Source: a virus
Taxonomy: Duplodnaviria; Caudoviricetes
IMG/VR virus record: IMGVR_UViG_3300020371_000002
DNA length: 64,000 nt
Direction: 5' to 3' (one strand)
How positions within the stretch are numbered: position 1 is the first letter of the stretch; every line of letters begins with the position of its first letter. A program made the translations under genes and the position numbers. Positions 11,401-19,256 of this stretch are shown in pieces. The notes beneath the pieces were generated by a model. It worked only from the letters and a program-made list of their open reading frames with translations, was not told the origin of the DNA and did no database searches.

Positions 11401-14400
11401 ATCAACGTCAACAACAGTGAATGTTCTAAAGTCGAACATCGAGTTACCAGTACCAACGATACCGAAGGTCTGACCAGCAACTAAGGTGTGGTTTGAATTA
11501 CATCTAATTGTAGCAACACCAGTTTCACCAGTTACACTGATACTTGTAAATGCAACGCCAGGGTTGGCGATGTTATACATTGGCAGTCTTCTATCAGTCC
11601 TTTCAGTATAGAAAGGAGACATAATATTTGGTTTGTCAATCTCAATGGAAACAGACTTTGCAGTTGGAATATCAACAATCTTATGTGTTCCATTGTACAT
11701 TGGATCAGCAAATCCATTCAGATCCATACCATCGCCAACATTATTGAAGATAGCAGTAACTTCAACAACAGCAGGAGAAGTAGCAGCACCAGCAGGGAAT
11801 GGATCAACTGTCATGGTGTTACCTACACCATATGCACAACCACCATCAACGATCTTAACACTGGTAACTGTACCAGCAGCAGAGATCTGAACTTCAGCGG
11901 CAGCATTCTTACCAATCAGTCCATTATTAACGAGATCAGCTGAGTAGATAACAGTAGCGATACCAGAACCATTGTTATATCCAGAACCACCGTCGATGAT
12001 GTTTACACTCTTAATGGAGTTGAATCTATGCTCTGTATCACTAAACAGAGTGACAGTGGTGTTACCTGTACCAGTAACAACCGCACCAGTTACAGCAGTA
12101 CCAACATTGAATCCCTGCATGAAGTAGTTAAGGGATTCTCTCGTAAGAGACTTCTTCTTATCATTAGAAAGAACAAGACCAACAACTTCTGGAGTGGCAA
12201 ACGATACAGAAGGTTGTGGATCAGACTCATAGTTATCTCTATCCTGTTGTGGATATAGATTTCTAACATCCTGAGAGAAGGACTTCATGGATACACCAAA
12301 TCCAAGGTCCTTATCAAGAGAAACAGAACCACAAGTCAGGATCAGGTTGTAGATACCATCTTGTCCAGATGTGCCAGGAATATGTGGTTTTGCCTCCTGA
12401 ACACGATAGACGTAAATACTATCCTTAGACTTAGATCTATGAATTGTAGGAAGATTTTCGATCTGTTGTTGTGTAGTTCTTTGGTTGATCTGACACTTAA
12501 ATTCGCCAGGATCAGTTGTAATACCAGAAATAGTAAACTGTTTTCTACCAAGAACAGTTGCAACTGGGTTCTCACCGTTAAAACCAACGTTGAATGTACC
12601 CAGTGGATTATTAACAGAATCAACCTGTCTAATAGTTACAAGGTCGCCAGGAATCAGATCATGATCTTTCTCCGTGGTAACAGTAATAGTATCGGATGAC
12701 CATGTAGCATTCTTAATGATCTTAACGTTCTTAAGTTGAGTTGGGTTCGTTAAGTCAGCACTCAAGAATGATGCACTACCAACACCAACTGTCTTGGATT
12801 CTTGAAGTACGAAACCAGGCGTAGGTGGACGTGCATTAGTATGTTCCTTAGGAATAACATATCTTGCTCTGTAAAGTCTATCTTGCAGAGATCTGTTATC
12901 AACTCTTCTCTCAAGGTATGTTGCACCAGATTCTTGACCAATAAGACCAACACCAAGAGAAGCAAATGCTGGATAGATTGTATTAGATACAGCACTAGGA
13001 TCAACGTTAATATACCAGTTGTTGTTTACACTATCAAACTGGATGGGATGACCCTTCATGCCAGGTTGTTTGTCGGAAACAGTAGAACTGATAATCAGTT
13101 TACCACCACCATTAGACAAACCAGTCAGAGGTCTACGAGCAAGTGCGTCGTTCAGAGTTGCAGCAAGTTGAAGTTTGTCTGCAGCAAGAGAACCACCAGT
13201 AATTGCATAGTAGATCTTATCATTCTTGATACCATTAGGTGTTTCTCCAGTATCAGAGAAGACTCTAACTCTCTCACCAGTGATTAACTGGTGATTCTGA
13301 ACAAGACTAAAAACGTTAGATACAATGAAGTTGACACCAGCATTACGAACAACATCGTAAACTTTTTGGTAGGAAGTAGCAATACCAGAAGTTCCAGACT
13401 CCATGAGAACTGGAGCTTCATAAACATTCTGAACTGCCTGACCAGTAGAAGTATCAACCAGTGCAAGTTTCAGAGTTTCACCTGCTCTTGCACCAACTCT
13501 ATAAGAATCAATCTCAGCAGGAGGTACAATTTCTTGAGTATTATATCCAAACAGATACAGTCTACTGGTATCAGCAATACCAATAGTCTTTTGAACGTCA
13601 AGAGTCAACCATGAGATAGTAGTATCTTCAGCAGTTAGTTCTCTAGGAGGAATGATGTGTGTGATATAACCAACATCATCACGGTCGAATGAAGAAGGTC
13701 TGAATCCACTAGATTCAAGAGCAGTTTGACCAAAGTTTGAGTTGGAGTTAGTAATAGATGCGTCACCACCTCTCTCCGCTTGGAAATGTCTGGCGAACGC
13801 AATAGCGAACACAGAAACGATCTGAACAACAGCGTTGTTCCTCACTCTCATGTGAGAAGTTTCATATGTTGGTTTGTAGATGGCAGCAGAGTTGCTGTGC
13901 AGAGGTCTATCTGCATCAGAAACAGACTGGTCATCATTAAAGATTGCAGTGTCTGGGTTATACAGAACGAAGGCATTGTCATCCTTCTGGATAGAAATAC
14001 CCGTGAACTGTGCAACAACCATCGACTTAAATCCAGTCGCCTTGTCACCATCACAGTCCATACCGTTCATACCATAAACTGAACGGAGAGAACAGTTAAA
14101 GATGTATGGAGATGCGGAACCTACAGTATCAGGTTCAATAATAATAGAAGAGTTCTGGATTTCCTGTGGGATAGGAAGTGGGTTGCCAGGTACAGATGGA
14201 GCAATATATCTAAACTCAGTATCACTCAGAACTTCCTCAACCACAAAGGAACCATTGTAGGAGTTAATAGATGTAGTGATACCAGCAATAAGAACTGGTG
14301 TCTCTTTGAAGAGGTTGTGTGCTTTGTTAGTAGTGACTGTAATTTGTGTGGAGGAGGTGTTACCGTCTCCTGCCTTAATAGAACTAATACCAACTGGATC

Positions 14401-15246
14401 AGCAGCAAGGTCACCAACAATCCTAAATTCATCAATATTTGGTTCAAAATCGTCAAACGTGGGAAAGTCACCAACTGGACGACCAGAAGCATCACCATAT
14501 GCTCTAGCAACCTTGTAGTAGAACATATCAAGGTCAGTAAGACCTGAGTCCGATCCATCAATGATTACATTGTTTACACCATCAGCATACTGGAAACAAG
14601 ACAGTTTGTGGTGAGAGAATGTTGGTTTCTTAGAGTTGCTGTTGAAATCATAATATGCAACTTTAGACAGATCAGCATCAAACAGAGAGAATGCTGTGAA
14701 GTAACAAGTACCCGTAACTCTGAATACAGATGTATATTCAAACCTATCGTCTTCAGGATCAGGCACATAGAGTGGTCTGATCTTGGTCTTACGAAGATCC
14801 AAACCAATAATAGATGTACCTCTAGGCAGAATTACACCACCCTCAGTAGAGTTGTACTTGTAGAGATCATTATTTCTATCAAGAACATCAAAGTTAGTCT
14901 CAGTAGTAAACTCATTGAGAGTAACTTCTACATAATTACTATTTCTTCTCGCCTTAAATTGGGCGCTACCATTATTATCTATTACAGTATATCCAGGCCT
15001 ATTGTCAATATAGTGTGTGCCTGGGAAAGTTAGAATCGTTGTTCTATCAATCTTATCGTTATTCTTACCCGTCTGGTACGAAAATCTTGCTGCCTCAATG
15101 AGTGCCCTCTGAATCGTTTTGAAAGGACGAGTCAGAGAGTTACCTCTGTTCTCAATACTATCAGTAGCATCAAAGTCGGAAGGGTTAACATACAGGATAT
15201 TACCTTCAGCATTCTTGAGGAAATTCTCTAATCTTGAAAGAGGCAT
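8464..15246 (-). CDS. giant virion fibre/structural protein with C-terminal Peptidase S74 intramolecular chaperone
   Basis: Typical cyanomyovirus N-terminus MPLSRLENFLKN...ILYVNP; C-terminal SDDRLK...LNGFTYNFN...GVSAQEV...VQYEKLVPLLIEAIKE. Confidence 0.85.
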   Translation of the reverse strand: MPLSRLENFLKNAEGNILYVNPSDFDATDSIENRGNSLTRPFKTIQRALIEAARFSYQTGKNNDKIDRTTILTFPGTHYIDNRPGYTVIDNNGSAQFKARRNSNYVEVTLNEFTTETNFDVLDRNNDLYKYNSTEGGVILPRGTSIIGLDLRKTKIRPLYVPDPEDDRFEYTSVFRVTGTCYFTAFSLFDADLSKVAYYDFNSNSKKPTFSHHKLSCFQYADGVNNVIIDGSDSGLTDLDMFYYKVARAYGDASGRPVGDFPTFDDFEPNIDEFRIVGDLAADPVGISSIKAGDGNTSSTQITVTTNKAHNLFKETPVLIAGITTSINSYNGSFVVEEVLSDTEFRYIAPSVPGNPLPIPQEIQNSSIIIEPDTVGSASPYIFNCSLRSVYGMNGMDCDGDKATGFKSMVVAQFTGISIQKDDNAFVLYNPDTAIFNDDQSVSDADRPLHSNSAAIYKPTYETSHMRVRNNAVVQIVSVFAIAFARHFQAERGGDASITNSNSNFGQTALESSGFRPSSFDRDDVGYITHIIPPRELTAEDTTISWLTLDVQKTIGIADTSRLYLFGYNTQEIVPPAEIDSYRVGARAGETLKLALVDTSTGQAVQNVYEAPVLMESGTSGIATSYQKVYDVVRNAGVNFIVSNVFSLVQNHQLITGERVRVFSDTGETPNGIKNDKIYYAITGGSLAADKLQLAATLNDALARRPLTGLSNGGGKLIISSTVSDKQPGMKGHPIQFDSVNNNWYINVDPSAVSNTIYPAFASLGVGLIGQESGATYLERRVDNRSLQDRLYRARYVIPKEHTNARPPTPGFVLQESKTVGVGSASFLSADLTNPTQLKNVKIIKNATWSSDTITVTTEKDHDLIPGDLVTIRQVDSVNNPLGTFNVGFNGENPVATVLGRKQFTISGITTDPGEFKCQINQRTTQQQIENLPTIHRSKSKDSIYVYRVQEAKPHIPGTSGQDGIYNLILTCGSVSLDKDLGFGVSMKSFSQDVRNLYPQQDRDNYESDPQPSVSFATPEVVGLVLSNDKKKSLTRESLNYFMQGFNVGTAVTGAVVTGTGNTTVTLFSDTEHRFNSIKSVNIIDGGSGYNNGSGIATVIYSADLVNNGLIGKNAAAEVQISAAGTVTSVKIVDGGCAYGVGNTMTVDPFPAGAATSPAVVEVTAIFNNVGDGMDLNGFADPMYNGTHKIVDIPTAKSVSIEIDKPNIMSPFYTERTDRRLPMYNIANPGVAFTSISVTGETGVATIRCNSNHTLVAGQTFGIVGTGNSMFDFRTFTVVDVDPFAPLRALHFNVGVHTSGIDSSYDVTDARLFGHGFRARSKSLGLGENNLNARGATIWTGISTSIAAPLTSTDQSITLTDTSGFQKGDYCQIGAEIIRFTNDNINAILRGQFGTVAAAVPVGSTIKKIEIVPMELRRPSILRASGHTFEYLGYGSGNYSTSLPQKQDRVLNSDEQLAAQKKEQSGGKVVYTGMNDAGEFFTGYNKLSAITGEEEVIGAPIFTYTGDDAESEAAKKVSGVFDELLVREGITVEGGDNNNRTSQFYGPVNFTQKLTNSSAEGIETKNLFLKGDAPQGKLLTVGISTPIQAARSGDMSFVSNPNTGGYLGHIYAEGEWRRFGVVSQERDRQFLKIDQIGVGKSGIGPFDFTDAMEVNGTTKLNHLFVSGIVTFASPQTFSGVTYDSIVIRKIANFWGYNTTGGVSPQGIPWENYGYYSIVDEGGVIRAYDFETVGTYVSFKPASHISIEGPINDTYAGVSTFVGTLDVGNIECDGGTVNVTTLTAVNAGIGSLNVLTHSYAKTGFVTNFRAEVASVTNGLYADVGITTTLHATTAYINEANIFSGVVTNMSASNHVVTPQLYASSGIVTNLTGTNVTYDNIAGTAVTATDFNFTDQLFGPTAFVNTGIITAVKSRVVMGPGAQGPGQPGLEIVANSGVVTSIVGTYATVTFLNSGINGSVMTDDLYANAGIITALGDSGVDMTIECGPTGKINTFQMVHTATTGTPPIITSSITKCVNLNADLLDGMDTSTGNAGNSIVARDASGNFSSNVITASAFNGGSFSGSSLSVSGAISAGSLSVSGNLSGTAEKADQVKINSADSSSYQVLLVPANSQGNYRAGRVDNGITWNGGSNTLSIGALSVSGSITAGSDITAFASDDRLKRDKVGISGALDKVLSLNGFTYNFNETAGNLGFNTEVRYAGVSAQEVKKVLPEAVKPAPVDNKYDTVQYEKLVPLLIEAIKEQQVQIDELKAKLESHNHAE

Positions 15247-15275
15247 TTTGGCTCAAACTAATATTCTTCTGACTA

Positions 15276-15310
15276 TATTTAGACACTAAAAAAACCCTCT
15301 TGGGGAGGGC
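15276..15310 (-). promoter_or_regulatory. terminator followed by late promoter CTAAATA for the fibre gene
   Basis: CCCTC/GAGGG stem + T-run; TATTTAG at 15276-15282 on plus. Confidence 0.7.
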
Positions 15311-15311
15311 G

Positions 15312-15782
15312 TTACTGACCTAATGTAAAACTTAGAGTTGCTCTAGGTCCATGAACTTCAGGTCTATGATATGTTCCAGCTTCAATAAAAAGAGAATCGC
15401 CTGGATCTAAAGTAATTTCTTTATCATCATCAAACCAATAAGAAACTTTTCCTAGTCCCCCGACTAGAAGAACATCTTTATCATCACAGTGTCTTTCAAA
15501 AGTAGAAGCACCACCAGCAACAGAAACATAGACGTGCATCTCTTTGACAGGCACCTCTTTATAAACTTCTTCTGCTGCCTTTCTTAATGAGCCTGGTGTA
15601 TATGTATTGTGACAAACAAATGATGGTGGAACCTGCGGTAGATGATATACAATCTTGCATGTGCCTTTTGTATATTCATCATCCAGTTTATCCAATACAT
15701 CTTCCCAAGTTACATCAACATCAAACTCGGAAGGTGTATATTCATACTCAATCGCGTTGTCTCCAATCATCAGGTTTTTCAC
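15312..15782 (-). CDS. JmjC/cupin-like oxygenase
   Basis: FERHCDDKDVLL...GKVSYW...LDPGDSLFIEAGTYH. Confidence 0.8.
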   Translation of the reverse strand: MKNLMIGDNAIEYEYTPSEFDVDVTWEDVLDKLDDEYTKGTCKIVYHLPQVPPSFVCHNTYTPGSLRKAAEEVYKEVPVKEMHVYVSVAGGASTFERHCDDKDVLLVGGLGKVSYWFDDDKEITLDPGDSLFIEAGTYHRPEVHGPRATLSFTLGQ

Positions 15783-16065
15783 GTTGAAACCAATCTACAA
15801 TCTCATCAGCACCTTGAAACCCCGTTCTGTGATTGGATGGGTCGGGGTCTCCTAACCCCATCCTATTCATAAAATCATCCATACTACCTTCCTGCATATC
15901 AGGATTGGCTGCTTTCTGTCTGGCTTTCTTCAACCATTCATTTGCAGTGGTATTTGCTTTACCTAGTTTTTCCGCCCAGATCATATCTGAGAGTTCAACA
16001 CTTTCACCGTTTACAATCTTCTTGCAGATGCCTTCAAGTCGAAGACGGTATTGAGTTGACAGCAT
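15748..16065 (-). CDS. conserved cyanophage hypothetical protein
   Basis: MLSTQYRLRLE...WRQRD pattern recalled from cyanomyoviruses. Confidence 0.75.
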   Translation of the reverse strand: MLSTQYRLRLEGICKKIVNGESVELSDMIWAEKLGKANTTANEWLKKARQKAANPDMQEGSMDDFMNRMGLGDPDPSNHRTGFQGADEIVDWFQREKPDDWRQRD

Positions 16066-16068
16066 ACA

Positions 16069-16263
16069 TTACTTTCCCAGTTTGCTTTCTAGATCTTTCA
16101 CCTTTGTGTACTCTTCATAAGCCGCATCGGACTTCTCTCCAAGAATTTCCATAATATCCTCATAGATCACGTCAGTCGGAACGTAATCATCAAAATACTT
16201 ATAGAGGGCTTCTTGTAAATACCTCTTTCTATGCCACTCGGGTGAATATGGTTTGTATTCCAT
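16069..16263 (-). CDS. conserved cyanophage hypothetical protein
   Basis: YSPEWHRKRYL; late promoter at 16269-16275. Confidence 0.75.
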   Translation of the reverse strand: MEYKPYSPEWHRKRYLQEALYKYFDDYVPTDVIYEDIMEILGEKSDAAYEEYTKVKDLESKLGK

Positions 16264-16278
16264 GATAATATTTAGTGT

Positions 16279-16320
16279 AAAAAATGGGGTCCGAAGACCC
16301 CGATTGCACTTCCTTCACAC
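16279..16320 (-). ncRNA. candidate ~42-nt sRNA with Yfr2-like 5' end
   Basis: TTGCCA-17-TATAAT promoter (16327-16355); predicted +1 at GUGUGAAGGAAGUGCAAUC; terminator GGGGUC-UUCG-GACCCC + U-run. Confidence 0.6.
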
Positions 16321-16344
16321 CCTGACATTATATAGAGAGAAAGA

Positions 16345-18015
16345 TCACTTGGCAACTAAGTTATAACTTGGAAACCACACATAATCTAGGTTTGATCCGT
16401 GCAATGTTCGGAGGGCTTCGTCGGGCGTTTCAACCAGGGGTTCACCAGCCAAATTAAAGCTAGTATTAAGAAGAATCCCAATACCTCGGCGAGATTTGAT
16501 CTCTGTGAGGAGTTCATAAAGTAAATGCCCTTCTCTAACAGTTTGGATTCTGCAGGACCCATCTTCATGGACAATGCCTTGAAAAGTAAGTCTCCACTCC
16601 TCCTTAATTTGAAAAGAGTTTGTCATAAACTCATTTCTCTCTAAGTATAACATATCAAAACATGTTTTGGCATCTTCTTCCAGAATAATTGCCGCAAAGG
16701 GACGATACCATTCACGTTTCTTAATCTCATTAACTATATCCTTCGCAGAAGGATTAAAAGCATTAAAGAGAATAGATCTGTTACCTAATGCACGTTGTCC
16801 TGCTTCTGCTTTACCATAATATACTGCAACTGATTTATCATTATCCAAGAGATCAGCAACACCAGAGGTATCATACTGCCAATCAGATCCCTCTTTCATA
16901 CTAAAATATACATCTTCTAGATCATAATCATATCCATGAAAGAAAGTATCTTTGAGTGGATACTTATTCGTATCACCAGTTTCATTCTTATATGAATAGA
17001 TACAGGCACCAATAGAGTTGCCAGTATCATCTGCAATCGGTTCAAACCAAAACTTACATTCGGGCATCAACTGTACGAGGTAAGAATTGGTAACAATATT
17101 CATCCCATAACCACCAGTTACGATGATATTTTTAATACCTGTTTTAGTAGAATAGTAATCAATACATTTGAAGACTTCTTCCTGAGTCTGATTCTGTACA
17201 TGCTTGGCATAATCTGCATGTAGAGTATCTTCGAATGTAACCTCGTTTGTGGTATATTCATGAAGTTCTCTATTCATTACTGGTTTTACATGGGATCTAG
17301 CATAATTATCCAGATCAAAATATGAATCATGAGGAACTAGGAATACATCGGGGTCTAGACAGTTCACAAATAGGTCAGGAAACCCCTCTGGATGACCGTA
17401 GGCAGAGAGTCCCATAGTCTTTCCATTCTCTAGTGGGTGTTCGCCAATCAACGTTGTGGCGGACTCATAGACCATAGTGGCATTGAACTTACTACGAACA
17501 ATATGTTTCGTCTCTGGTCTAACTTGTTTCAGATACTCTAAAACTTCTTGAATCTGATGTGATGAAAAGTCTGACCAATAGTTTTTATAGATTTCTGTGA
17601 ACGTATATGGATCTCTGCGAGCAACCATAACAGTCTCCGACTCGCGACAAACGCCACCAATCTTAGATCCATTCCTATCAGCAACAAAGATAAGTGCCTC
17701 ATCAAAACCACTGTTCTCAAATGCCAGTGCAGCATGACTCATGTGATGATACTCGTCCATATCAATCACTGGACACTTAAATAATCTTTCCGCAAGAAGA
17801 TCGACACTGAATATACTCCTACCGTCTGGAGAGGCAATAACACAAAGATCCACAGGACCCATAAGTGTCTTTTGTGCCTCAATCATGGCAAGATATGGTT
17901 TAGACTCTTTCTTAATACCACAGAGTCTCTCTTCTTTAAAGAAATATTCTATTTCCCCATCATTATAAACACAGACCGATGAATCATGACTCGGACTGAT
18001 ACCAACAATTCTCAT
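16345..18015 (-). CDS. carbamoyltransferase (NodU/CmcH/TobZ family)
   Basis: GISPSHDSS...EERL, HHMSHA, GKTMGLSAYG, EAGQRALGNRSIL, KKREWYRPFA, LLNTSFN. Confidence 0.92.
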   Translation of the reverse strand: MRIVGISPSHDSSVCVYNDGEIEYFFKEERLCGIKKESKPYLAMIEAQKTLMGPVDLCVIASPDGRSIFSVDLLAERLFKCPVIDMDEYHHMSHAALAFENSGFDEALIFVADRNGSKIGGVCRESETVMVARRDPYTFTEIYKNYWSDFSSHQIQEVLEYLKQVRPETKHIVRSKFNATMVYESATTLIGEHPLENGKTMGLSAYGHPEGFPDLFVNCLDPDVFLVPHDSYFDLDNYARSHVKPVMNRELHEYTTNEVTFEDTLHADYAKHVQNQTQEEVFKCIDYYSTKTGIKNIIVTGGYGMNIVTNSYLVQLMPECKFWFEPIADDTGNSIGACIYSYKNETGDTNKYPLKDTFFHGYDYDLEDVYFSMKEGSDWQYDTSGVADLLDNDKSVAVYYGKAEAGQRALGNRSILFNAFNPSAKDIVNEIKKREWYRPFAAIILEEDAKTCFDMLYLERNEFMTNSFQIKEEWRLTFQGIVHEDGSCRIQTVREGHLLYELLTEIKSRRGIGILLNTSFNLAGEPLVETPDEALRTLHGSNLDYVWFPSYNLVAK

Positions 18016-18515
18016 TAATTATCGCCCCATATTTGGATAGTATAACGCATATTCTTGGGGTTAGGCGAAACTGGTGTAACACAATGCCATTCCTTACTAT
18101 GATTTATCATCATTAAATTCCTTTGTGGAGGAATGGCTTTCCATATCTCATCATCACCTTCTTTCCACAAGAACCAACCACCATCAGTACGATCCCACTT
18201 CTCATTCAAATAGATCGTAGCACCAAATTTATGTGCTTTATCTGTATGTGGAGGAATACCCGTTAATGGTTGCCAAATATAAAATCTAAGTTGGTAATGT
18301 TCACACTTAGGAATATGTTCTTTAATACAGTCAAGAACTCTAGTTGATAGTTCAGGTGACAATTTAGTGGCAAGTGTGGTTCCTAACTCCAGTTTAACTT
18401 CTTCAGACCAGTTAATTGTACTGGATGACCACACTTCATCACGGAGTTTATCCTGTAATTCTCTCTTACAGTCAACCCAAACTAATTCATTAAGAGCGTC
18501 TTTTACTATCTTCAT
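18015..18515 (-). CDS. 2OG-Fe(II) oxygenase
   Basis: PPHTD...TIYLN...GGWF...WHCVTPV...RYTIQIW. Confidence 0.85.
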   Translation of the reverse strand: MKIVKDALNELVWVDCKRELQDKLRDEVWSSSTINWSEEVKLELGTTLATKLSPELSTRVLDCIKEHIPKCEHYQLRFYIWQPLTGIPPHTDKAHKFGATIYLNEKWDRTDGGWFLWKEGDDEIWKAIPPQRNLMMINHSKEWHCVTPVSPNPKNMRYTIQIWGDN

Positions 18516-18530
18516 CGTCCCATATAGATA

Positions 18531-18603
18531 TGGAGAATAGGGGACTCGAACCCCTAACCCCCTGCTTGCAAAGCAGGTGCTCTACCAATTGAGCTAATTC
18601 CCC
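18531..18603 (-). tRNA. trnA: tRNA-Ala(UGC)
   Basis: GGGGAATTAGCTCAATTGGTAGAGCACCTGCTTTGCAAGCAGGGGGTTAGGGGTTCGAGTCCCCTATTCTCCA. Confidence 0.97.
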
Positions 18604-18791
18604 TCGTTTTCCCTCTTTTCTTTAGCTTCAAGAATATACTCAACAGTGTTCGCAACATCATCCATGGCATCACGAAGCATCGGTTGTTGACCAGAGTGTT
18701 GTTCTCTGTATGTAACACCGTTTTTAAATTCTTCGCAAAGAGTCCATCGCCATTGCAACATACTCTTAGAATACCATAGATTAATCTTCAT
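18594..18791 (-). CDS. conserved cyanophage hypothetical protein
   Basis: MKINLWYSKSMLQWRWTL. Confidence 0.7.
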   Translation of the reverse strand: MKINLWYSKSMLQWRWTLCEEFKNGVTYREQHSGQQPMLRDAMDDVANTVEYILEAKEKRENEGN

Positions 18792-18805
18792 AATACTCCT
18801 GAGTA

Positions 18806-19072
18806 AGGGGGCATTACACCCCCAAGGACTACTTGGGTAAGAAGGCTAGTCTAACCCCCATCTCCCATTCAGGCAGTCGCGAGTTCACGAGTGCGGGAGA
18901 ATGCTACGATGTTGTTCGCAGCGACATCAGATGGTTTAGCATCTATTGGTTGCTTATCCAAGCAGGTTTCAGTCATGCCCCTTGTACCCCGTCGAAGCCA
19001 GTGCGACCCCATGAGTGGAGTCGAGGGGAATCGAACCCCTGTCCGAAATGTAGGTTGCATCACCTATTCCAC
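18806..19072 (-). ncRNA. ssrA: circularly permuted (two-piece) tmRNA
   Basis: Acceptor piece ...TTTCGGACAGGGGTTCGATTCCCCTCGACTCCA (ends 19016), 5-nt spacer, coding piece GGGGTCGCACTGGCTTCGACGGGG (starts 19010); 7-bp acceptor stem with G3:U70; tag frame 18919-18869 ANNIVAFSRTRELATA. Outer ends approximate. Confidence 0.92.
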
Positions 19073-19082
19073 AAAAGTGGAA

Positions 19083-19156
19083 AGCCACATGTCGGACTTG
19101 AACCGACGACCTACGGTTTACAAAACCGTTGCTCTATCCAGCTGAGCTAAAGTGGC
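19083..19156 (-). tRNA. trnT: tRNA-Thr(UGU)
   Basis: GCCACTTTAGCTCAGCTGGATAGAGCAACGGTTTTGTAAACCGTAGGTCGTCGGTTCAAGTCCGACATGTGGCT. Confidence 0.96.
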
Positions 19157-19171: not shown

Positions 19172-19173
19172 AG

Positions 19174-19256
19174 TAGGAGTGGGGGGACTTGAACCCCCAC
19201 GCCCAGAGGGCAACAGATTTTAAGTCTGGTGTGTCTACCGATTCCACCACACTCCC
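19174..19256 (-). tRNA. trnL: tRNA-Leu(UAA)
   Basis: GGGAGTGTGGTGGAATCGGTAGACACACCAGACTTAAAATCTG..., long variable arm, GGTTCAAGTCC. Confidence 0.96.

Follow-up and report, generated by a model that had tools for sequence, protein, structure and literature searches.

The 64,000-nt virus record IMGVR_UViG_3300020371_000002 (Duplodnaviria; Caudoviricetes), referred to over its full length as the window, comes from a T4-like cyanophage of Synechococcus and contains psbA with a PhotoRC-II RNA, three transfer RNAs (tRNAs) and a cyanobacterial-type transfer-messenger RNA (tmRNA). On the minus strand, which carries all of the flanking genes, an element of about 42 nucleotides (nt) lies between a carbamoyltransferase gene and a short open reading frame (ORF). 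This element is very probably a real, conserved small-RNA (sRNA) gene. We propose, with a probability of roughly 0.55, that it represents a family of cyanophage sRNAs whose 5' seed pairs with the host tRNA-Val(CAC) and disables the reading of GUG codons.

The promoter named in an initial annotation of this DNA, TTGCCA-17-TATAAT overlapping the carbamoyltransferase stop, was recovered on the minus strand with 11 of 12 matches to the sigma-70 consensus, and it is the top site, and the sole one with 11 matches, within positions 15000-18000. Its -35 hexamer lies across the end of the carbamoyltransferase gene, sharing bases with the final codons and with the TGA stop (16347-16345). The start that had been predicted at the first base of GUGUGAAGGAAGUG agrees with our reading, in which the 5' end GTGTGAAGGAAGTGCAATC begins on the seventh base after the -10 hexamer (a G at +7), a prediction made from sequence. 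From this base onward the DNA reads GTGTGAAGGAAGTG, then the spacer CAATC, then a hairpin. The UUCG-tetraloop terminator described earlier is present and has the features of an intrinsic terminator: a 6-bp stem with five G-C pairs, a UUCG loop, and an A followed by six U's. Transcripts of the carbamoyltransferase gene would share it as their end point. RNAfold left the first 19 bases of the 42-nt RNA free and gave the hairpin -12.3 kcal/mol, and, as previously noted, the element contains no plausible ORF. The exact 14-mer seed has a single copy in the window. A complement with two mismatches (14346-14359, inside a 2260-aa ORF) was rejected as being at chance level, with 13 of 100 shuffles giving two or more such matches. 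Four RNA-library runs hold parts of 15300-18100 as assembled contigs, one of which, 87 nt long and from a related strain, covers 16241-16327; because such contigs carry no information on start, end, strand or level, and DNA carry-over is possible, they are uninformative on expression. The features of the locus are collected in Table 1.

Table 1. Features of the small-RNA locus, of its surroundings in the window, and of the divergent P-SSM4 element.
Feature	Position	Strand	Basis or remark
Carbamoyltransferase gene, 556-aa ORF, upstream of the RNA	16345..18015	(-)	Pfam PF16861 + PF02543, phrog_1601
-35-like hexamer TTGCCA	16350..16355	(-)	consensus scan
-10 hexamer TATAAT, 17-nt spacer from -35; followed by GTCAGG (6 bases), then seed	16327..16332	(-)	consensus scan
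5' seed GUGUGAAGGAAGUG, 14 nt, unpaired in the RNAfold prediction	16307..16320	(-)	sequence and fold
Spacer CAAUC joining seed to hairpin	16302..16306	(-)	0-6 nt in relatives, not conserved
Terminator stem-loop GGGGUC-UUCG-GACCCC	16286..16301	(-)	sequence, RNAfold, family covariation
A + U6 tail of intrinsic terminator	16279..16285	(-)	predicted 3' end, giving an RNA of ~40-42 nt
Whole predicted small RNA, ~42 nt	16279..16320	(-)	covariance model R1 match 16276-16320(-), 55.2 bits, E 7.7e-11
CTAAATA box, late-promoter-like, serving the next gene, outside the small RNA	16269..16275	(-)	sequence
Downstream 64-aa ORF, ATG at 16263	16069..16263	(-)	profile match, phrog_1461; Syn9 locus, Syn9 gp135-like
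ORF of 2260 aa	8464..15246	(-)	
Permuted cyanobacterial-type tmRNA	18778..19105	(-)	Rfam RF01851, 145 bits
Three tRNAs flanking the tmRNA	18531..18603, 19083..19156, 19173..19256	(-)	
P-SSM4 element: CTAAATA, 8 nt, GUGUGAAAAGGGGAAG, hairpin, U-run	L732:1490-1545 (record 120168-120223)		between PSSM4_109 and a 2OG-Fe(II) oxygenase gene

The element is widespread among cyanophages. A BLAST search with the 121-nt region returned 296 phage records, 240 of them named Synechococcus phage and 17 Cyanophage, with alignments that begin at the G of GTGTGA. The 14-mer and hairpin are thus present in about 257 Synechococcus-phage or cyanophage records, for the most part behind g23 or gp134. In S-RIM2, ACG-2014b, Syn9, S-M1, S-SM1 and Syn19, the 14-mer, the hairpin, the T-run and CTAAATA lie downstream of g23 (major capsid) or gp134. 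An exact-word scan of IMG/VR found the 14-mer in at least 119 contigs. Among the matches listed, 65 of 105 unique sites had a promoter-like box 3-10 nt upstream together with a perfect hairpin (5 bp or longer) no more than 12 nt downstream, compared with 3 of 102 and 1 of 80 sites for two control 14-mers. The 66 unique elements retained after curation have 55 different hairpin arms and three types of promoter (TTGACN-17-TATAAT, 26; extended TGnTATAAT, 27; late-type TAAATA, 17), all of them 3-10 nt upstream of the seed. A hairpin that lacks the U-run and has a tRNA starting 4-9 nt beyond it is the arrangement on many tRNA-rich contigs and in S-SRM01, a freshwater isolate. RNase P probably frees the leader there; other tRNA promoters on the same seed-bearing contigs have no such leader. 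Because promoters, hairpins and 3' context (terminator or tRNA) all vary, selection appears to keep a short RNA with the seed at its 5' end and any stable hairpin.

Eight elements served to build a covariance model (R1), with which 79 matches were recovered. In the resulting alignment, which was fitted to the model and leans to structure so that the figures are somewhat inflated, 96.4% of stem cells were paired, against 68.7% in shuffles (0 of 500 reached the observed value) and 50-70% in slid controls. All 10 hairpin pairs have changed on both sides in a compensatory manner, with double changes in 184 cells. It replaced a plain MAFFT alignment of 27 elements, for which RNAalifold gave a meaningless consensus because hairpins of unequal length were left unaligned. 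At the gathering threshold Rfam had no family for the window's element or for its counterparts on 16 related contigs, and nothing relevant appeared at E up to 10. Literature searches on the seed motif, on cyanophage sRNAs and on phage sRNAs with a host tRNA returned no description of the element, and the RNA family is apparently undescribed.

Several variants of the leader were seen in passing. On six IMG/VR contigs long leaders of about 72 nt precede the tRNA, with a second structured part containing GUGCCUGUGAAGGGAAACCUGAGGCUGGGUAAAUCC between seed and tRNA that has no Rfam match. On another contig (L024:14149-14200) the exact seed abuts the 3' end of a tRNA and, in place of a hairpin, a Shine-Dalgarno sequence and an ATG come next, an atypical context. 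In S-SRM01 the next annotated gene past the leader-tRNA-Gly unit is a phage 'porin'.

To look for a partner of the seed, psbA loci were used to reach four genomes of picocyanobacteria (Synechococcus RCC307, PH41509, CUG2176 and a Cyanobium). Each has exactly one perfect copy of the 14-mer, in every case antisense to tRNA-Val(CAC). The seed is the exact reverse complement of nt 24-37 of this tRNA, covering two bases ahead of the anticodon stem, the 5' stem strand CUUCC, and the whole loop UUCACAC. Paired in this way, bases 1-7 of the seed would occupy the anticodon loop, and bases 8-12 would take the place of the 3' strand of the stem. By chance about 0.016 copies of a given 14-mer are expected in 2.2 Mb. 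Among the Cyanobiaceae sampled, a single exact copy was present in 121 of 201 genomes (reversed control word, 5 of 201), and across the cyanobacterial class no tRNA-Val(CAC) arm is commoner than the one that matches the seed. A CC just upstream of the seed in half of the phage elements, and an enrichment of C just downstream, extend the complementarity to 16-17 nt. The predicted duplex between seed and tRNA has 14 contiguous base pairs and an energy of -24.8 kcal/mol. RCC307 has 41 tRNAs, all three Val species included; within 4.35 Mb of phage loci only Val(CAC) had antisense 12-mers in a promoter-plus-hairpin context, and the other 40 had none, in a set that is biased towards this result because the loci had been picked through the Val seed.

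These features are those expected of a trans-acting antisense sRNA. A promoter of its own is predicted to set the 5' end at the seed, the modeled seed is unpaired and followed by a stable, covarying 3' hairpin, and the extended complementarity to a host RNA, at 14 of 14 bases, appears to have been kept through evolution. Taken as a whole, the sequence evidence makes tRNA-Val(CAC) the probable partner of the phage RNA.

Variation in the seed follows variation in the tRNA. Among the Cyanobiaceae matches listed, alternative tRNA-Val(CAC) stems were CGCAUCC/GGAUG (7 of 150) and CUUGC/GCAAG (1 of 150). The seed GUGUGAAGGAUGCG, predicted from the arm CGCAUCC, was then found in three complete elements with the layout TTGACC-17-TATAAT, CC, seed, hairpin, tRNA-Gly. 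The seed GTGTGAAGCAAGCG, predicted for the arm CUUGC, gave no bona fide element among the matches listed. A sample gathered independently of the seed, through the phage tRNA-Gly downstream of the leader, contained unique leaders with GGAAGUG (7), GGAUGUG (5) and GGAUGCG (2), and several with one inserted or changed base; the first 8 nt, which would pair with the loop, were constant in nearly all of them, and the part facing the stem varied. A scan for CC plus GUGUGAAGGAUGUG added about 26 complete elements with the GGAUGUG seed; the arm that this seed matches perfectly, CACAUCC, was present in 2 of the 201 cyanobacterial genomes in the sample. In predicted duplexes every seed type scored best on the arm to which it corresponds (-24.8, -25.0 and -26.5 kcal/mol, vs -20 to -21.6 kcal/mol with the other arms). 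Most of the seeds have no inserted base; in these, A is invariant at position 7 and position 11 holds A or U only, exactly as pairing with known tRNA-Val(CAC) arms requires.

The control scans also picked up antisense copies of tRNA-Val(CAC) at the edges of six GC-rich (0.56-0.69) viral contigs, which are probably prophage attachment sites in the tRNA-Val genes of other bacteria. To judge from these contigs, the arms CGCAUCC and CACAUCC are common outside the cyanobacteria.

Host range and codon usage bear on the same partner. Five small Prochlorococcus-like genomes have tRNA-Val(GAC) and tRNA-Val(UAC) and lack Val(CAC), and no element was found at up to two mismatches in P-SSM2, P-SSM4, P-HM1, P-HM2 or P-RSM4. 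In these five Prochlorococcus myoviruses the covariance model returned terminators only, except for a weak match in P-SSM4. Relatives of P-RSM1 and P-RSM4 keep gp134, the terminator and CTAAATA without the seed, and the terminator therefore has a role of its own. GUG accounts for 10.9% of Val codons in the ORFs of the window, compared with 52% in host-locus ORFs (34.9 per 1000 codons), and is the phage's rarest and the host's commonest valine codon. On several of the contigs that bear the seed there is also a phage tRNA-Val(UAC) gene, whose arm is different.

A mechanism can be postulated from these observations. The element's own promoter would drive transcription of an RNA that starts with the free 14-nt seed, followed by a stabilizing hairpin; the RNA would be released by intrinsic termination in the window phage, and in tRNA-rich freshwater and estuarine cyanomyoviruses probably by an RNase P cut at the following tRNA. 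The seed would then pair with the whole anticodon loop and the 5' anticodon-stem strand of tRNA-Val(CAC), displacing the 3' strand, and the GUG-reading tRNA would be taken out of service, its decoding blocked and/or the tRNA exposed to nucleases. Because GUG is the commonest valine codon of the host and the rarest of the phage, the likely effect would be to tilt translation from host towards phage messages. Sequestration or destruction of tRNA-Val(CAC) that biases translation in this way is an outcome that we advance tentatively, at clearly less than even odds. Somewhat less tentative, though still short of an even chance, is the picture of an abundant 'anti-tRNA' that invades the anticodon arm as a GUG-specific, RNA-based host shut-off and whose seed co-evolves with host tRNA stems.

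Several points weigh against the pairing of the seed with tRNA-Val(CAC) and its proposed effect. The support comes from sequence and predicted pairing, and it is from these that we infer expression of the RNA, its binding in the cell and its consequence for translation. The mature tRNA is folded, modified and abundant, which is an obstacle to pairing; co-folding of the whole RNA with the whole unmodified tRNA gave a net gain of -16.4 kcal/mol over the separate folds, a value that ignores tRNA tertiary structure and modifications. Stoichiometric titration of a tRNA would demand very high RNA levels. Host tRNA-Val(UAC) may read GUG by wobble, so that loss of Val(CAC) may be mild, and GUG has not vanished from the phage's own genes (7.4 per 1000 codons). 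In the covariation test the predicted variant was itself what was searched for, which makes the test partly directed, and, the phages with variant seeds being uncultured, the apparent match of seed and arm is one between a pool of phages and a pool of host genomes. Seeds with a one-base insertion, which would bulge on the common tRNA arm, occur in S-SRM01 (GUGUGAAAGGAAGUG, L731:330-450) and in five IMG/VR contigs, GUGUGAAGUGAAGUG and GUGUGAAGGAAAGUG being further examples of the type. Among five Synechococcus isolates chosen beforehand, S-SM1 and Syn19 have the element and S-PM2, S-RSM4 and S-SSM7 have none; together with the five Prochlorococcus phages this makes a host census too small for a stand-alone statistical test. 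The syntenic element of P-SSM4 is divergent (21.9 bits) and keeps only GUGUGAA of the seed, and a search of the five small Prochlorococcus-like genomes gave its seed no target above control. Finally, the likeness of the seed to the 5' end of Yfr2 may point to a link with Yfr1.

That likeness underlies the best of the alternatives, the one put forward in the initial annotation: a Yfr2 mimic or sponge that pairs with the ACUCCUCACAC motif of Yfr1 and Yfr10 so that their control of targets such as porins is lifted or redirected. The background on which it drew is borne out by the literature. Yfr1 and Yfr10 carry this motif (PMC2518516, PMC6778093), and the 5' end of Yfr2 pairs with both (PMC6778093, PMC2518516). 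The Rfam Cyano-1 model found one to three Yfr2 copies in each of three host genomes (52-62 bits) with the 5' end (U)GUGUGAGGAGUGC, and the Yfr2-5 RNAs of MED4 begin with GUGUGUAGGAG (PMC2518516). Like Yfr2 (RF01701, Cyano-1), the phage RNA is short and has a conserved, single-stranded 5' end of the form GUGUGA..GGA..GUG, the 5' end being the surface by which Yfr2 binds Yfr1 and Yfr10 (PMC6778093), and the seed GUGUGAAGGAAGUG has the same letters as the Synechococcus Yfr2 end GUGUGAGGAGUGC with two A's inserted. Two bulges split the predicted pairing of seed and Yfr1 into 6+3+2 bp; its energy of -11.6 to -13.3 kcal/mol falls within the range of real sRNA seeds.

However, the phage element lacks every Yfr2-defining feature tested. 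It is half the length of Yfr2 and has no internal stem-loop bearing the GAAACAAGG loop: host copies show GGAAACAAGG or CGAAACAAGG, and the 42-nt phage RNA has its terminator hairpin only. The two insertions depart from a Yfr2-type 5' end (GUGUGAGGAGU in Synechococcus, GUGUGUAGGAG in MED4) that is contiguous in its complementarity to the Yfr1 motif. A cmscan of positions 16200-16400 at E up to 10 gave no Cyano-1 match (membership bar, 41 bits). The Yfr2 family has a CGRE1/PMM1637-type promoter element about 55 nt upstream (PMC6191309); the region upstream of the phage RNA is carbamoyltransferase coding sequence. Paired with Yfr1, the seed would bulge out its two extra bases and leave them unconstrained, yet the positions concerned are conserved, or vary solely as tRNA pairing requires, and the C13 and +U variants weaken Yfr1 pairing yet fit tRNA arms. 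The host's own Yfr2 pairs far better with Yfr1 (-19.2 kcal/mol), and the element is lost or degenerate in Prochlorococcus phages although Yfr1 is described as near-universal in cyanobacteria (PMC6778093); the Prochlorococcus-like genomes lack tRNA-Val(CAC). By predicted duplex energy, the seed fits tRNA-Val(CAC) (-24.8 kcal/mol) much better than Yfr1. A self-contained gene with a free seed equal to the Yfr2 5' end plus two A's is thus what remains of the sponge proposal, and Yfr1 as its main target is unlikely. The phage RNA may have a weaker side interaction with Yfr1 or Yfr10.

The resemblance is in fact three-way. Removing two U's from the tRNA-Val(CAC) arm ACUUCCUUCACAC gives the Yfr1 motif ACUCCUCACAC, just as removing two A's from the phage seed gives the Yfr2 end GUGUGAGGAGUGC, and a naive duplex of Yfr2 with the tRNA arm, both taken from host loci, has -18.6 kcal/mol. 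One possibility is that the host Yfr1/Yfr2 pair is tied into a contest between phage and tRNA, in which Yfr1 might, for instance, serve to decoy the phage RNA.

Two further alternatives seem slightly less probable again than the sponge, and about equal to each other. The RNA could act through a shorter pairing with another target, such as host or phage mRNAs or the 3' end of 16S rRNA, with the tRNA match as a by-product. Many sRNAs work through seeds of 7-10 nt, and the seed contains a Shine-Dalgarno-like AAGGAAGUG, one base off what we take to be the full anti-Shine-Dalgarno complement AAGGAGGUG, the 16S 3' end being assumed here. The predicted duplex with that 3' end reached just -8.8 kcal/mol, and pairing with the anti-Shine-Dalgarno sequence was set aside. 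In addition, the tRNA is the sole exact 14-mer site in each host genome, and the seed variants follow the tRNA stems, which no other target explains. The second is a cis-acting or protein-binding leader, its conserved 5' sequence recognized by a phage or host protein for processing, stabilization or control of transcription. The seed is always at the very start of the transcript, in many phages it stands right before tRNAs that need processing, and the long versions hold an extra structured part. However, other tRNA promoters on the same contigs do without it, the window and marine phages have a terminator at once with no attached downstream RNA, and a protein site is not expected to change in step with host tRNA stems. 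Very unlikely is simple gene punctuation, in which read-through from the promoter supplies the genes beyond, the hairpin closes off the gene before it and there is no functional sRNA: the relatives of P-RSM1 and P-RSM4 fit it in keeping gp134, terminator and CTAAATA in place without the seed, but in more than 100 distinct elements promoters and hairpins change around an exact 14-mer whose distance from the promoter is fixed, control 14-mers are almost never found in such a context, and the downstream gene has a late-type box of its own.

Elsewhere in the neighborhood, the CTAAATA box is presumably a late promoter of the kind found in T4-like cyanophages, and the 2260-aa ORF comes directly after the small genes on the downstream side of the element. 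The tmRNA has the tag AKPSDVAANNIVAFSRTRELATA and is flanked by tRNA-Ala(UGC), tRNA-Thr(UGU) and tRNA-Leu(UAA); the tRNA-Thr called by ARAGORN overlaps its 5' part by about 23 nt and is absent from the Rfam output. A similar tmRNA occurs in another IMG/VR contig.

If pairing with tRNA-Val(CAC) is borne out, the element would be, to our knowledge, the first phage sRNA with a tRNA target; we know of no other. It would offer a simple mechanism for an old puzzle, namely how AT-rich T4-like cyanophages favor their own translation in GC-rich Synechococcus beyond the few tRNAs that they carry. The element is short, widespread in marine and freshwater cyanomyoviruses, and adjoins the most highly expressed late gene. 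It would add an RNA family to Rfam and mark an unannotated intergenic region in hundreds of phage genomes, and it raises the question of why the near-universal Yfr1 motif resembles the tRNA-Val(CAC) arm.

Phage and prophage sRNAs that pair with host mRNAs are known. The phage RNA resembles such trans-acting antisense sRNAs in being a small primary transcript with its own promoter, a short seed, a terminator hairpin and a presumed pairing with a host RNA. One example, cited in PMC7368042, is DicF, which acts on ftsZ. Unlike DicF-type sRNAs, the phage RNA has as its complementary host RNA a tRNA anticodon arm rather than an mRNA, and in the literature on phage sRNAs we found no description of an anticodon-arm target. 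RNAs that read an anticodon by pairing include T-box leaders and the retroviral A-rich loop with tRNA-Lys3, which sense or recruit the tRNA through contacts of 3-7 nt. The phage element is likewise a non-coding RNA with a predicted Watson-Crick contact to the anticodon loop of one tRNA; the 14-16 nt involved here would, unlike theirs, invade the anticodon stem. The element had no Rfam T-box match, no T-box motif, and nothing near its hairpin that could pair with an NCCA or acceptor end. Phage-borne tRNAs, evasion of tRNA-cleaving defenses, and loss of host tRNAs as a means of resistance are treated in PMC11464382 and PMC11726456 and in work cited in the latter. As in these tRNA-centered strategies, the tRNA pool would be contested, and cyanomyoviruses carry tRNAs for AT-type codons. 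Those strategies add, protect or cleave tRNAs by means of proteins or tRNA genes, whereas the phage RNA would mask one tRNA of the host.

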